From the NCBI GenBank assembly GCA_964291315.2, contig OZ219753.1, positions 320,001 to 384,000 of the forward strand: a DNA stretch of 64,000 bases, given 5' to 3'. The DNA is from Candidatus Poribacteria bacterium. GTDB taxonomy: Bacteria > Poribacteria > WGA-4E > WGA-3G. This document shows positions 40,334 through 45,229 of this stretch, in pieces. Position 1 is the first letter of the stretch; each line of letters opens with the position of its first letter. The notes beneath the pieces are model-generated. The model was given only the letters and a program-made list of their open reading frames with translations. It made no database searches and had not been told where the DNA came from. Made by a program: the position numbers and the translations under genes.

Positions 40334-41629
40334 TTATGAGGCTTTGGCAGCTGTGGCAATATTAGCCCGGGTGCCTTCGATATCAAAGCAGGCGTACTGA
40401 TTTGTATTCATAATACGGGTTGCAAATGCTATTGCTTTTTTTTCTGTGAGGTACCCCTCGGTGATTTCAGCTTCAAGAGCTCGGCGAATTTCATTTCGTG
40501 CTTGAATCGCATACGCCATTGCACTTGTAGGCCAGCCTGTGTCCCCGCCGAACGCAAACAATTTGTTCGAGGGCACGGCGTGGATACATCGCCGCAGGAA
40601 GTCACGGGAGCTGTATGGATCAATGCTCCAGGCCCAACAGAAGTCTACCCAAATGTTTCGATAATGTTTGGCGAGTGCCACTAGCTCATCGTTATAAGGA
40701 TAGGCGATATGCATCAGGACAAACTTCGCGTCAAGGTACTGCGCGAACAAGGTGCACATGTTTCCTGCGGGGATCCGTTGGACGGGCATTCGATCATTGC
40801 CTGCATAGTAACCTGTGTGGATTTTGAAGGGCAGATTGTGTACAATTGCGAGTTCAACCCCACGTGCCCAGCACCAATCCCCGAGGCAGAGTCGTGTTGC
40901 TTCATCGATTTCTGCAGATGGTTTTGTTAGTATAGTATTAAGCGCGGCGGCAGCCTCGGCATCAGTTCGTTCGATCCAGTTGAGCGTACGGTTATAAGCA
41001 TGCTGGGATTTTACGGCGATTGCGCAACCTGCATGCTTGGCAAAAATTGCTTCCATTGCACGTTTCAGGGAGGCAAGGTCGTTGACCACGATGCCTGTTT
41101 CTCGGTGAATTGCCCTTGGATCTACTTGTCCACTACAAAAGGTTGCCCATGAGAGATCATAGAGAAAAAAATCGGGCCCGGAGGTGTCTGGAGGGCACTG
41201 CCAGCTGAAATCATCTGTTTGAATGTGGTCAAGCTTCGCGATGTCGTGTAGGATGTGATAACGTTTGCCGGGCGTGTGAAGCGTCTTTAGGTTATCTGCC
41301 CGCGCGAGCGCATCGGTTGTTAGTTCATCTAGTCCATAGATATGTTTTGCGATCAGACCAACCGCTTCGCCATACCCGGTAAACTGCGTTGCTTTCCATG
41401 CTTCTTGAATACCTTCGAACCGTGATGCGATATCCTTGGAAGGGTCCATGAGGTTGCGCATTGCTTCTGGCGAGGCTCCAGCTGTTACCAAGTCAGCAGG
41501 CACGTAGTTCCCGAACAGGTCTTGCAGGATATCAGGACCATTCTCGACCCAATCGTTTTCGCGGCGCATGTGTTCGTGTGTATCAACGAGACGGATGGAT
41601 TGAATGTGGTAGGTCAGATCGGTTGCCAT
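40334..41629 (-). CDS. Amidohydrolase family protein
   Basis: DTHEH metal motif, KIHTG, LMHIAYPY, FGGD. Confidence 0.85.
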   Translation of the reverse strand: MATDLTYHIQSIRLVDTHEHMRRENDWVENGPDILQDLFGNYVPADLVTAGASPEAMRNLMDPSKDIASRFEGIQEAWKATQFTGYGEAVGLIAKHIYGLDELTTDALARADNLKTLHTPGKRYHILHDIAKLDHIQTDDFSWQCPPDTSGPDFFLYDLSWATFCSGQVDPRAIHRETGIVVNDLASLKRAMEAIFAKHAGCAIAVKSQHAYNRTLNWIERTDAEAAAALNTILTKPSAEIDEATRLCLGDWCWARGVELAIVHNLPFKIHTGYYAGNDRMPVQRIPAGNMCTLFAQYLDAKFVLMHIAYPYNDELVALAKHYRNIWVDFCWAWSIDPYSSRDFLRRCIHAVPSNKLFAFGGDTGWPTSAMAYAIQARNEIRRALEAEITEGYLTEKKAIAFATRIMNTNQYACFDIEGTRANIATAAKAS

Positions 41630-41787
41630 GTAAGTCTCCTAAGAAATTGGCGGTGAAGATAAAGGTTTTATAGATATTGGTTTTGTATAAGATGTAGCGT
41701 AACTTCTGATGCTACATCTCGGAAACGTATTCATGCACAATAAAACGGATACTGTTAGTATCTATAGTCCTATCTTTGACAAATATA

Positions 41788-41816
41788 TTGAATTATGTTT
41801 TATTATATTATATAAT
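41788..41816 (+). promoter_or_regulatory. Putative promoter of the cold-shock/Hfq-like gene
   Basis: TTGAAT-17 bp-TATAAT; another TTGACA lies at 41776. Confidence 0.6.
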
Positions 41817-41916
41817 GTTATAGTAGTATAGTAGTAGCAAATTTAATTTGTGAGTTCACTTGTTTATTAAGACGTGTAAGCTTACAAAACTTGCAACAAC
41901 AAAACAACGCTGCTTT

Positions 41917-41945
41917 ATCATAAAACAGCAGTTTCATTCTGTCAA
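41917..41945 (-). promoter_or_regulatory. Putative promoter facing the amidohydrolase gene
   Basis: Minus strand reads TTGACA-17 bp-TATGAT. Confidence 0.7.
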
Positions 41946-42068
41946 GAAAAAAGGTAAATTCAGGGTGGTTCATGTGCAAGCCTCCTTAACAAAATTGAAA
42001 TGCTCGCGTAGGAACGTAAATGGGTATCATCAGTTTCCTAAAGAAGGACAAGACCGCAGGAGCATATA

Positions 42069-43025
42069 ATGCCTACAGGACGGATTAAGTATTACAATTT
42101 CGATAAAGGTTTCGGATTTATCGCGCAAGATAGTAGTGACACTGATGTCTTTCTACACAGTTCTGCGATTAAGCAGCCTGAATATGATGAACTCCGTGTC
42201 GGACAGCGGGTGAAATACAACATTGTTGAAGGCGAGAAAGGACTGGTTGCTCAAAATGTTGAGGTATTGTTAACGCCTACTGAGCGTCGATGGTTGAGAC
42301 AAGGGAAAGCCATTATCCCGCGTGGCTATGCGGGTTTCCCTGGGCAGCACCAGGATCAATTTTTCAGGGAGCATCAGACGCCCTCCGTTGAGGGTGAAAC
42401 CTCTAAATCAAAATCGACTCGGAGTCAGCGCGATCGCGATGCGTCCATAACATCTTCAAAGCCGGCTACGGAACCACGTAGCCAACCTGCCTCGACAAGT
42501 GGTTTCGACGATGCTGTAGCGTCAACGCGGAACATCAAGGAACAAACTTCAAAGCAACTCAGCTTCGGGGACCTCTACATCCTCAAGCAGATTAATTTTG
42601 AAACCCCAATGTTTTTCGTAATGTCCAATGATGTCCAACTTCCGGCGACAGTCCTTGAGATGACGCTTTCCCGTTTGACTCTCAACAGCAATGGCATTGA
42701 AAAGCATATCGCTAAAACGGATATTAAATATTGTTATAAAGATGTTGATGCGGAACTGGTTCAGGCGGGTATTCATATCAACAAAGAGGTCAAAGCGCAG
42801 CGGATTCCGCAATTAACCGCCGATGCTGAATCTTGTGATCTTGATACCGAGGTGGTCCAGGATGCCCGAAAAAATAGATCCCTGATTGAGTTGACTCTCC
42901 GAGATGGAGAGGTTTTTCGCGGTATTATAGATTGGGTGAGTCCTTATGAAATTAAGTTGGTTTTGGAAAATGGAGCAAAGGTTGTTGTTTTTCGGCATGC
43001 TGTCTACACTCTTTCCCTGGATTAG
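42069..43025 (+). CDS. Cold-shock domain protein fused to two Hfq/Sm-like domains
   Basis: N-terminal CSD (KGFGFI, DVFLH, KGLVAQNV); disordered linker; C-terminal LTLRDGEVFRGII...YEIKL...VVFRHAV resembles Sm1/Sm2; a more degenerate Sm-like segment precedes it. Confidence 0.8.
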   Translation: MPTGRIKYYNFDKGFGFIAQDSSDTDVFLHSSAIKQPEYDELRVGQRVKYNIVEGEKGLVAQNVEVLLTPTERRWLRQGKAIIPRGYAGFPGQHQDQFFREHQTPSVEGETSKSKSTRSQRDRDASITSSKPATEPRSQPASTSGFDDAVASTRNIKEQTSKQLSFGDLYILKQINFETPMFFVMSNDVQLPATVLEMTLSRLTLNSNGIEKHIAKTDIKYCYKDVDAELVQAGIHINKEVKAQRIPQLTADAESCDLDTEVVQDARKNRSLIELTLRDGEVFRGIIDWVSPYEIKLVLENGAKVVVFRHAVYTLSLD

Positions 43026-43033
43026 GTGCTGTT

Positions 43034-43603
43034 ATGGACCCGTATCACCGACTGGTTAACGAAATTCAGAGCGATTTTCAGCGTTTGCGTGCGGAAGCCG
43101 GAGGGGGTCCGTGTCCGTCTAATTGCTTTTCCTGCTGTCAGAATACAGCGACAATGGCGATTAGTGAGGTAGAGGCGCGCGACTTGAAGGTTGGTTTGGA
43201 ACGTCTTCCTCTCCAGCTTCGCATGCATATCGGTCAGAAAGCTGAACGGACTGTCAGAGAATTGGAGGCAAACGGTTACACCGCCGAAAACATCGTTCCC
43301 GATGCTGGCATGAGAGCGATTAGCGTGGTAAAAGGGACTCCTGAAGGTGAGTGTCCGATGCTAATAGGTGGGGTCTGTGCTGTTTACGAGCGCCGTCCCG
43401 TCATCTGTCGGGTTTGGGGATATCCGATTCATAACGGTGCTGAATTGGCGTGTTGCCATAAAACGTTTATTGGACAGCGCGGCCGATACCAACCCCTGAA
43501 ATACACCCATTATTGGAATGAATGTAAAAGGCTCAGCAGCGAATTAGGTGCCCACAAAAAAACACCCAACTGCTATCTTGTCCTCCGCTTGCTTTCTGAA
43601 TAG
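43034..43603 (+). CDS. YkgJ-family cysteine-cluster (putative Fe-S/Zn) protein
   Basis: CPSNCFSCC ... CPML...CAVYERRPVICR.WG. Confidence 0.85.
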   Translation: MDPYHRLVNEIQSDFQRLRAEAGGGPCPSNCFSCCQNTATMAISEVEARDLKVGLERLPLQLRMHIGQKAERTVRELEANGYTAENIVPDAGMRAISVVKGTPEGECPMLIGGVCAVYERRPVICRVWGYPIHNGAELACCHKTFIGQRGRYQPLKYTHYWNECKRLSSELGAHKKTPNCYLVLRLLSE

Positions 43604-43691
43604 CATCGACTGTATCTCATCATTCTCTTAGTGAAGATGGAGAATGAAATGTACTATTATCCCATACGATCACAAATGAAAGGAGTCAAAA

Positions 43692-45229
43692 ATGCCCAAG
43701 CACATAACCTGCATGTTTGTTTTCATGTTGATGTCTGCATCGCTATATGCAGATTATACAGTCAAAACAATCTATTTCAAGCCAGTCGATGCACCTAAGC
43801 CAGATATCGCTCTAATCCGTTCCACATGGAGCGCGCACAAAGGTTATTCTCCGATGAAATGCAGGATCACGGATACGGGAAAAAGACATTCACGTTAGAA
43901 CGTGATGTTATTGGGAACGTTATTGTACATACTGTGCCTGGGAAACATGCTGCGAATGTCTATGAGAACGATACATCCGGATTAATGAATCAGGAACTGC
44001 CAACGCGCTTCAGCTCACGGATTGCGGGCACAAAACATGTGTTTTGTATTTTTGTAGGCGGGACCGACCGAGTAAGCGGTTCTCTCGGCTTCGGATCTGC
44101 TAATTATGATAGCAGCGATGGTTGCGGCGCTTGCAGTGGGAACGCCGTTGTACCAGCATCAGCTGATATGCGCACTGTCGCGCATGAGCTCGCCCATGCC
44201 TTCGCGCTCTGGCATAATTTGCGAGGCAAGAATGGGGGCGATTACCTCATGTGGAACGGCTATCGACTCGATGAACAGGAAGCCCGATGGCTAAACAGAC
44301 ACCCTTACTTCAATGATAACCCTCGTATGGCCCACAACCCTCCATCTGTTTTGAACGTTTATCCTATTGAAGAATTCACACTGAAAGGGGAAGATTATCT
44401 CTTATTCAAGGCAGATGTGGAAAGCAAGGCTGTACTGCATCAAGGAGTCATGATAAGGAAAACTGACAGTGTAGTCATGGGGTGGGATAAAATCTACGGC
44501 TATAAGGATACCGCTCAATTCCTTGTCAAAGAAACATATCTTCTAGAGGATTATGATGTTTGGATGCTGTTTATGGACATTGATGGCAATATCAAGCTCC
44601 ATCATATAGATCTGAGGGTTCATCCAAGAATAGACACATCCACAAGAGGTGCTGAGGACATTGATGGGAACGGTAACGCAGAGGTGGCATATCTTACAAT
44701 TGAAGCCGATCACCCAAAAGCAATTAAGCCTGTCAATAGAATGCATGAGTGGGACGGATGGGTAGCAGGGGTATGGGAGAAAGATATAGACGGCAGATAC
44801 CCCAACACACCTTTGCCATATGTCCGTTTTGCTGATAGGGATAAATGGGATCACTGGTTTTACAGTCATGCCCCCAGTCGCATCGTCTGGGACATAAGCG
44901 ACGGAGAGTATTCTAAATTTGGCTGTACCTTCCTCTTGGTACATCCATGCGCCGGGTTTGCAGCATCTATGGAAGTGACTTTTATAGCAGATGGCAGAGA
45001 GGTTTATTATTCGGGAGAATTGTATTCGCGTGACGGTACGAAAAAAAGTATTTCTTTCGAAATACCGCTAGGCACACAAAGGCTGGAAATGCGAGTGGGA
45101 GTATTAGATGATGGTGCGAAATGTGATCATTTCGTTCTCGGTGAACCGCGACTGTTTTCTGCAGCCGCAGCTCCACCACATAAGCCGAAGCGAATCACAA
45201 CTATGACTTGGGCAAGCCTAAAAAAGTAG
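43692..45229 (+). CDS. Secreted zinc metallopeptidase-like protein with an NPCBM/NEW2-like domain and a TWASLK tail; single-base frameshift near 43825
   Basis: Signal peptide in 43692..43898, body in 43826..45229 (HELAHAFALWH...M-turn YLMW; HAPSRIVWDI...FIADG...CDH); one added base joins them. Confidence 0.8.

Follow-up and report, generated by a model that had tools for sequence, protein, structure and literature searches.

The textbook examples of bacterial RNA chaperones, Hfq and CspA, are as a rule two distinct small proteins. Tandem Hfq proteins of the NF010691 kind occur in some bacteria, presumably Alphaproteobacteria. A review of Sm proteins (PMC3710371) describes two kinds of Sm-type protein fused to other domains, namely Hfq joined to a zinc finger, encoded on plasmids of Thermococcus and Methanococcus, and SmAP3, which combines an Sm domain with an extra domain; the term "cold shock" occurs nowhere in the text of that review. 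Two separate hfq genes are present in some bacteria, according to work cited in PMC6200039. Here we describe a gene from Candidatus Poribacteria, a sponge symbiont with a 4.40-Mb genome (four contigs, 95.2% complete), that encodes a cold-shock domain (CSD), a linker, and two Hfq-like domains in one chain and is followed by a gene for a YkgJ-type cysteine-cluster protein. The gene lies in a 64,000-nucleotide (nt) stretch of one contig, hereafter the window, to which all coordinates refer unless another contig is named. Our analyses suggest that the product is a composite RNA-binding chaperone in which a CspA-type CSD is tethered to a double-Hfq module, a reading to which we assign a probability of roughly 0.6. 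An initial annotation of the locus had stated that no description of this architecture was known. A literature search, to which subscription journals contributed little, indeed returned no paper on a CSD–Hfq fusion or on a tandem double-Hfq module, although precomputed Pfam labels already pair PF00313 with PF21979 on many of the orthologues. The only paper containing both "Hfq" and "Poribacteria" (PMC11607428) concerns FlgV and was set aside as irrelevant.

The protein begins with a complete CSD, as had been proposed for residues 1 to 66. PF00313 matches residues 3 to 65 with 69 bits against a gathering cut-off of 27, and the closest solved structure is that of CspA (1mjc). The domain contains the sequences KGFGFI (residues 13 to 18) and VFLHSS (residues 27 to 32), which we take to be the RNP1-like K-G-[FY]-G-F-I and RNP2-like V-F-[VL]-H motifs, and residues G16, F17, I18, F28, and H30 are invariant across 31 sequences. 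In a full-length predicted model the CSD forms five strands. Its scores lie below the equivalog cut-offs of all the NCBIfam CspA, CspE, and CspD models, the best being TIGR02381 with 68.2 bits against 115.4.

The C-terminal half is predicted to contain the Sm/Hfq fold twice. AlphaFold2 modeling of residues 160 to 318, with a 49-row alignment of diverse relatives, gave a mean predicted local distance difference test (pLDDT) score of 94.3 and a predicted template modeling (pTM) score of 0.89. The predicted structure shows one helix followed by five strands, twice, and the two units are joined by a structured connector with helices at residues 225 to 234 and 239 to 243 (pLDDT mostly above 90, with a dip to 71) and a conserved DE.VK.Q.L motif. 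In a Foldseek search with the module model, all 27 rows shown, the top-ranked included, were Hfq at a probability of 1.00. The initial annotation had assigned Sm/Hfq folds to two segments, residues 167 to 223 and 262 to 315, and the AlphaFold2 model, Foldseek, VIA, and hhalign (below) all favor that assignment.

For the second of these domains, the relationship to Hfq extends to sequence. Domain 2 falls short of the Pfam cut-off of 27 for both Hfq_1 (PF21979, 24.7 bits) and Hfq (PF17209, 17.3 bits); the family profile, compared with solved structures, retrieved 37 distinct Hfq sequences at E values of 1.3e-4 or below, the best being Thermotoga maritima Hfq at 7.8e-8. An hhalign comparison of domain 2 with Escherichia coli K-12 Hfq yielded a probability of 90.6% and an E value of 1.3e-6. 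This alignment places R267, K268, and R270 at the E. coli Hfq positions R16, R17, and R19, Y293 at F42, and F308-R309-H310-A311 at Y55-K56-H57-A58. The E. coli residues of this alignment have roles in the rim patch, the proximal uridine pocket, and the distal face of Hfq. Judged by these profile matches, domain 2 is a homologue of Hfq.

Domain 1 had no match in Pfam or NCBIfam, and its assignment draws on structure and on internal homology. In VIA, model residues 2 to 68 (residues 161 to 227 of the protein) covered whole Hfq chains over 60 to 68 residues with root mean square deviations (rmsd) of 0.8 to 2.9 Å, the best rows lying at 0.8 to 1.1 Å; the Z scores were 7.2 to 8.1, and values below 8 can reflect a common arrangement. 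We nevertheless regard the match as real, given that whole chains are covered, the rmsd is low, and the two halves are homologous. A Foldseek-independent fold search of 48,161 chains placed Hfq at ranks 1 to 7 for domain 1, with the next row at a Z of 6.5, and for domain 2 it returned Sm, LSm, and WYL folds at Z scores of 5 to 6.2. A solved tandem Sm chain was also sought in this search, and none of the listed matches aligned over more than 82 residues. When the domain 1 profile was compared with the domain 2 profile, hhalign aligned them over 52 columns with a probability of 94.6% and an E value of 6.5e-8, and the module therefore appears to be an internal duplication. Domain 1, on the evidence of this profile alignment, is a diverged duplicate of domain 2 and is tied to Hfq by sequence solely through it.

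The two domains differ in their Sm2 and pore positions. Where Hfq has the Sm2 motif [YF]-K-H-A-[IV] and a pore aromatic (F42 or Y42), domain 2 reads F-R-H-A-V and Y293, and domain 1 reads A-K-T-D-I and S201. The earlier pairing of AKTDI with FRHAV agrees with the model, in which a short helical turn connects strand 4 to strand 5 in each domain, made up of K216-T217-D218 in domain 1 and of R309-H310-A311 in domain 2. K216, the equivalent of K56, is nearly invariant in domain 1. In domain 1 of this clade, two positions that are basic in most relatives are N176 and E178, and a position usually occupied by Tyr is S201. The feature coordinates are collected in Table 1.

Table 1. Features of the CSD–double-Hfq locus (window positions; aa, amino acids)
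Feature	Position	Strand	Details and basis
CSD + double-Hfq gene	42069..43025	+	318 aa, stop codon included; open reading frame (ORF) list; orthologues at 80 Poribacteria loci
Cold-shock domain (aa 3-65)	42075..42263	+	PF00313 E 3.2e-19; CspA 1mjc E 7.7e-13
Conserved basic tail after CSD (aa 67-95)	42267..42353	+	LLTPTERRWLRQGKAIIPRGYAGFPGQHQ; 19-orthologue alignment
Variable, predicted disordered Ser/Thr/Gln-rich linker (aa 96-160)	42354..42548	+	Alignment; pLDDT <50; composition
Predicted Sm/Hfq-fold domain 1 (aa 161-227)	42549..42749	+	AlphaFold2 model; VIA; hhalign vs domain 2
Predicted structured inter-domain connector (aa 228-258)	42750..42842	+	AlphaFold2 model; conserved motif
Predicted Sm/Hfq-fold domain 2 (aa 259-318)	42843..43022	+	Pfam, below cut-off; profile search; hhalign
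YkgJ-type cysteine-cluster gene	43034..43603	+	189 aa, 11 Cys; ORF list; PF03692, below cut-off
Conserved part of 5' leader	42000..42065	+	15-leader alignment; RNAalifold on 13
Promoter-like site, tentative	41788..41816	+	TTGAAT, 17 nt, TATAAT; consensus scan

Between the CSD and the module, the initial annotation had placed a Ser/Thr/Gln-rich linker of about 95 residues. That description fits the ∼65 residues from 96 to 160, which contain 38% Ser, Thr, and Gln and vary in sequence and length among orthologues, but not residues 67 to 95, where the Ser, Thr, and Gln content is 17% and only three of 29 positions vary across 19 Poribacteria orthologues. Residues 79 to 161 have pLDDT values below 50 in the full-length AlphaFold2 model (31 alignment rows, pLDDT 72.5, pTM 0.52) and are predicted to be disordered; this model reproduces the folded parts, and the CSD has no fixed position relative to the module in it. 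The near-invariant tail at residues 67 to 95 includes a short helix at residues 70 to 77, modeled at moderate confidence, and it is still recognizable in orthologues of 40 to 48% overall identity. It is more conserved than either Hfq domain, also in genera that have no YkgJ-type gene, and it had no database match. The tail may be a docking peptide.

The fused architecture first proposed from this one sequence, a CSD, a linker, and two tandem Hfq/Sm folds, is supported by the sequence and structure comparisons above, and it is conserved in the phylum. A collinear single match running from residue 1 to at least residue 313 was found in 51 of the 61 phylum genomes sampled, and three more genomes were covered on fetched loci; in the order, the fusion gene is near-universal and single-copy. 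A scan with the pattern K[HLT][DNQ][IV]KYCYK, which is silent on other phyla, yielded 80 loci, all Poribacteria-named except two titled "uncultured bacterium." Misassembly and annotation artefact were considered and rejected, because the open frame recurs in 80 independent assemblies. On re-inspection of the ORFs, the coordinates of both genes, the 8-nt gap between them, and the residues quoted earlier proved exact. In one genome the fusion-gene match is split over frames with stops inside (G001:C44:70764-71729; 3 TGA, 3 TAG, and 2 TAA), perhaps through decay of this copy or through faulty assembly.

We also examined which other Csp and Hfq proteins these genomes encode, using genome samples and stop-to-stop frames, a design that supports "not found" rather than "absent." In the window genome the fusion gene is the sole PF00313 match, and PF17209 matches just the fusion gene and a 173-amino-acid paralogue. 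This second protein is a double Hfq without a fusion partner and with a Lys/Arg-rich N terminus, encoded outside the window (L041:1156-1677; G000 contig C4 12842-13363), and it is the only protein in the genome above the Pfam Hfq cut-off (31.4 to 31.5 bits). Module-only genes similar to it occur in many other genomes of the phylum. A canonical short Hfq was not found by the PF17209 scan of this 95.2% complete genome. In the 61-genome sample, all 20 over-cut-off Hfq matches of families f1 to f4 lie in open frames of at least 128 residues, and canonical-size Hfq frames (92 to 104 residues) appeared only in G002 and G004, two deep-branching genomes of the two most distant families. Together with the 173-residue paralogue, the fusion protein probably performs a large share of the general Csp and Hfq functions in this genome. 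Several f1 genomes (e.g., G030:C1:1208588-1208797 and G058:C231:5398-5595) have a second CSD match; these open frames span 184 to 253 residues, so by sequence the second CSD is another CSD fusion rather than a 70-residue Csp. The PF00313 scan gave no second match of this type in the window genome. Hfq matches were also seen inside open frames of 826 to 1332 residues (G055:C36, G019:C21, G047:C69, G024:C1, and G059:C1).

Taken as an RNA chaperone, the protein could work as follows. The N-terminal CSD would bind and melt single-stranded RNA, the disordered ∼65-residue linker would tie it to the double-Hfq module, and the module would hold and pair RNAs. Domain 2 appears to retain the uridine-binding proximal-pore and basic-rim residues of Hfq, and domain 1 would contribute the fold and one lysine (K216), most of its pore and rim residues being lost in this clade. 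Assembly from strand 4 to strand 5 is universal to Sm proteins, according to the Sm review (PMC3710371), and the module presumably oligomerizes likewise, through its free strand-4 and strand-5 edges. Because this mode of assembly is universal and the tandem unit leaves one free edge of each kind, a three-chain ring can be proposed: the likeliest form would be a trimer, as the initial annotation had suggested, in which "active" and "structural" units alternate among the six Sm domains of the ring and three CSDs are flexibly tethered to it. One such particle could hold, unfold, and pair RNAs. A three-copy complex prediction of residues 160 to 318 scored 0.00 against a mark of 0.42, with the controls not folded, and speaks neither for nor against binding.

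Several observations weigh against this proposal, apart from the caveat on the VIA Z scores given above. The protein scores below every curated Hfq cut-off, including that of TIGR02383 (19.1 bits against 61.7) in addition to the two Pfam families; a cyanobacterial Hfq-related model, NF047718, likewise gave 24.4 bits against a cut-off of 52. In the hhalign map, D259 stands at Hfq Q8 and T276 at the distal-face residue Y25. Each Hfq-fold domain has a net charge of −2, and orthologues of genus g6 read F-R-S-[SA]-V, Ser replacing the His of the FRHA motif. Domain 1 of this clade has neither the basic rim residues nor the Tyr replaced by S201, and half of any ring would therefore be poor in RNA contacts. 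Finally, some relatives fuse the module to helix-turn-helix (HTH), MarR, or ParB_N DNA-binding domains, with which a sensor or DNA role fits as well as RNA chaperoning.

These fusions emerged from an exhaustive HMMER search with residues 164 to 318, which retrieved 128 clusters (50% identity) at E values of 1e-3 or below, 37 of them at 1e-10 or below. Most of the clusters span both halves of the module. A Pfam scan covered 108 clusters (65 + 43), the other 20 being mostly short fragments; 15 of the 108 passed the PF17209 cut-off, and Pfam itself reported two Hfq stretches in P0183, P0230, and P0233. A CSD is present in 16 of the 108 representatives, N-terminal in 14 and C-terminal in P0183 and P0230. 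Other partners of the module are HTH_3 (four proteins), MarR, ParB_N, HEAT, DnaJ_C, S1 plus LSM, and GmrSD, and many relatives are stand-alone proteins of about 150 to 230 residues. Named members are mostly Poribacteria, and a profile homologue search with the diverse module alignment gave only close orthologues among its best 120. A Thermodesulfovibrionia protein that bears the name "RNA chaperone Hfq" belongs to cluster P0174. Protein P0225, from a deltaproteobacterial metagenome-assembled genome, combines a CSD and a double Hfq with a linker of only ∼10 residues, which extends the architecture beyond a single phylum; P0225 together with the Hfq-Hfq-CSD arrangement of the GmrSD proteins indicates that the CSD/double-Hfq pairing recurs. 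In P0233, LSM and S1 occur alongside two Hfq stretches, and a member of 1298 residues belongs to the same cluster (P0233/P0414). No model in NCBIfam or PADLOC covers the module.

The DNA-binding fusions bear on a different explanation, that the double-Sm module is a monomeric or dimeric nucleic-acid-recognition unit of a specific post-transcriptional or transcriptional regulator, with the CSD adding single-strand affinity and with a defined target set. The C-terminal HTH_3 (P0124, P0127, P0132, and P0140), MarR (P0245), and ParB_N (P0239) domains give a layout typical of sensor-plus-HTH proteins, and the best non-Hfq structural matches of domain 2 are single-stranded DNA (ssDNA)-bound WYL regulators (Z 5.9 to 6.2); the WYL domains of DriD, PafBC, CapW, and BrxR are Sm-like sensor domains. 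Against this stand the sequence homology to Hfq proper, with pore and rim positions kept in domain 2, and the free strand edges of a tandem Sm unit, which would favor oligomers. A further lead came from an ESM Atlas feature search, which ranked clusters of PF03614 (Flag1_repress) first at 0.90, a score that arises by chance 4 to 10 times in 100; one Atlas cluster mixes PF03614 (15%) with PF17209 (13%). FljA of Salmonella, an mRNA-binding repressor of about 170 to 180 residues, acts as a specific regulator of this sort, as do the WYL domains. PF03614, however, had no match at an E value of 10 or below in the window genome and was found in none of the 108 scanned relatives; it also had no match in E. 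coli K-12. On balance, we consider a dedicated regulator of this kind unlikely.

Two of the relatives, from metagenome clusters, raise a possible role in DNA transactions. P0183 and P0230 carry GmrSD-type restriction-nuclease domains, two Hfq stretches, and a C-terminal CSD, and P0183 matches the PADLOC models Orf5, HEC-06, and mREase_IV. The Hfq-Hfq and CSD set thus appears, by domain matches, to have been reused in a defense-type enzyme. The fusion protein might by analogy mainly bind DNA, single-stranded or duplex, as a nucleoid-associated, genome-maintenance, or defense-linked factor; according to PMC3710371, CSDs have ssDNA as a ligand in addition to RNA, and DNA is bound by Hfq and by Sm proteins of archaea. 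The PADLOC model CSD_V does match the CSD (E 7e-10), but PADLOC models match neither the module nor the YkgJ-type protein, and tblastn with the module found no relative in 72,556 plasmid and 50,697 phage records. The genes around the fusion locus are metabolic (a thiamine pyrophosphate enzyme, an IF-2B-family protein, an amidohydrolase, a ferredoxin, and RecJ), and their annotation shows no defense island. A near-universal, single-copy gene in the order is also what would be expected of a housekeeping function. We regard a primary role in DNA binding as highly unlikely.

The initial annotation had also proposed a coupled system of the fusion protein and its YkgJ-type neighbor. The fusion gene ends with TAG, followed by 8 nt (GTGCTGTT) and the ATG of the YkgJ-type gene. 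Its product matches PF03692 with 19.3 bits (E 0.0019), below the gathering cut-off of 23; precomputed PF03692 labels are present on five orthologues (P0286, P0294, P0295, P0317, and P0346), P0311 is named YkgJ family by NCBI, and some orthologues are called "YkgJ family cysteine cluster protein" or "Fe-S-cluster containing protein." The protein contains 11 cysteines (C27, C31, C34, C35, C107, C115, C125, C140, C141, C164, and C180). The N-terminal cluster, C27-x3-C31-x2-C34-C35, reads CxxxCxxCC rather than CxxCxxCC and is followed by C107, C115, and C125. All 92 relatives found are close, and every named one is from Poribacteria.

Linkage between the two genes is strong among close relatives and fades with distance. 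The YkgJ-type gene lies downstream of the fusion gene at 67 of 80 Poribacteria loci, at 62/62 of those with at least 58% identity and 5/18 of those with 39 to 48%, and the gap is 7 to 14 nt at 49 of the 67 linked loci; smaller, overlapping locus sets gave adjacency of 20/20 and 5/20. Such spacing could mean that the two proteins form an obligate two-part system, e.g., an RNA chaperone gated by redox state or metal, with neither protein active alone. Consistent with this, the genes at the 62 loci are co-oriented, a YkgJ orthologue, when present in the loci examined, always adjoins the fusion gene, and the YkgJ-type subfamily is confined to Poribacteria-named records. Close kin share gene order by descent, however, so that 62/62 overstates the independent support; common descent accounts for much of the linkage. 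The fusion locus of genera g6 and g7 lacks the gene (0/12), the gene that follows the fusion in g7 lies on the opposite strand, and with this query no YkgJ orthologue was found anywhere in the four genomes tested (G015, G020, G034, and G011; 94 to 99% complete), all of which keep the fusion. Module forms elsewhere show no Cys-cluster domain. An obligate pair is, in our estimate, very improbable. Because only 5 of 18 distant loci keep the gene and the four tested genomes in which no orthologue was found keep the fusion, we conclude that the YkgJ-type gene is a lineage-specific, probably co-translated, and optional accessory. The coupling proposed earlier thus survives as adjacency at 67 of 80 loci, not as a fixed partnership, given that with this query the gene was not found in four of four genomes of two fusion-keeping genera.

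Returning to the composite RNA chaperone, the data allow a bolder version, which we consider possible, with the odds against it. In core Poribacteria, Csp and Hfq would have merged: the homo-hexameric Hfq would have been replaced by a sub-functionalized double-Sm chain that forms a trimeric pseudo-hexamer, to which three copies of the sole CSD are tethered, so that one particle melts and anneals RNA; in part of the phylum the YkgJ-type protein would adjust this particle to redox or metal state. If true, the trimeric pseudo-hexamer would give bacteria a counterpart of the hetero-oligomeric Sm rings seen in eukaryotes. A natural, conserved Hfq/CspA fusion would show how RNA melting and annealing are coupled in one particle, and a double Hfq with one degenerate half is a candidate for a bacterial step from a homomeric Sm ring to one of unlike units, a step otherwise known from eukaryotic Sm/LSm proteins. 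With 128 clusters, many fusions, and no curated family over its whole length, the module represents an unstudied family, and the fusion offers a first entry point to post-transcriptional control in a phylum of sponge symbionts without cultivated members.

Upstream of the fusion gene, two elements stood out in an alignment of 15 leaders: the conserved block AAAUGCUCGCG.AGGAACG.GAAUGG and, ahead of the start codon, the invariant CAGGAGCAU. AUGCUC (42000-42005) is able to pair with GAGCAU (42060-42065), which overlaps the Shine-Dalgarno sequence GGAG (42059-42062); 91.8% of the alignment cells pair in this helix, compared to 38 to 56% when the segments are slid, and covariation in the helix was not above that in shuffled alignments (88/500). 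An Rfam scan of positions 41000 to 44200 gave nothing credible, with a single chance-level microRNA match and no cspA thermoregulator. A search for RNA sequencing runs covering positions 41700 to 43700 listed none, which is uninformative in either direction. Provided that the tentative TTGAAT-17-TATAAT site is real, the leader would be ∼250 nt long; the promoter-consensus scan of the leader found 6 sites against 4.4 ± 1.9 in shuffles, so that the site alone is not above chance. Downstream of the YkgJ-type gene, a 467-residue ORF (43826-45229) encodes a HELAH motif, a type seen in zinc metalloproteases, and ends in an NPCBM/NEW2 domain (E 2.5e-7).

How, then, does this protein compare with known systems? 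FljA (PF03614), an mRNA binder, is brought near it by Atlas features, by which PF03614 clusters rank closest, and differs in that no PF03614 sequence match was found in the genome or the 108 relatives. WYL regulators (DriD, PafBC, CapW, and BrxR) share an Sm-like barrel that serves as a nucleic-acid sensor, but their matches to domain 2 are weaker than those of Hfq and have no sequence support. The zinc-finger–Hfq fusions and SmAP3 (PMC3710371) are precedents for an Sm or Hfq domain fused to another nucleic-acid-binding domain; their partner is a C2H2 zinc finger or a novel alpha/beta domain, they have a single Sm domain, and they are of archaeal or plasmid origin. Closer in layout is NF010691/PRK14091, a 176-position "RNA chaperone Hfq" model with two Hfq-like halves in one chain. 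Relatives of the module match either half of it (P0135 at 23 to 77 and P0174 at 105 to 157), but the fusion scores 13.5 bits and the module relatives up to 42 against a cut-off of 270, so the module appears to be a separate lineage. Moreover, the NF010691 family is without a CSD, and in the fusion the first half is undetectable by sequence. The CspA family (PF00313) shares the full CSD with its nucleic-acid-binding motifs; its members are stand-alone proteins of ∼70 residues, whereas here the CSD heads a 318-residue protein and scores below the NCBIfam Csp equivalog cut-offs. The strongest likeness is to Hfq itself (PF17209; E. coli Hfq; 1kq1, 6gwk, and 4y91), with the helix and five bent strands predicted in both C-terminal domains, sequence homology in domain 2, and superposition of domain 1 at an rmsd of ∼1 Å. 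The fusion lies below the curated Hfq cut-offs and does not keep equivalents of Q8 and Y25, and it is set apart from Hfq by two Sm domains per chain, a degenerate domain 1, and the addition of a CSD on a long linker.

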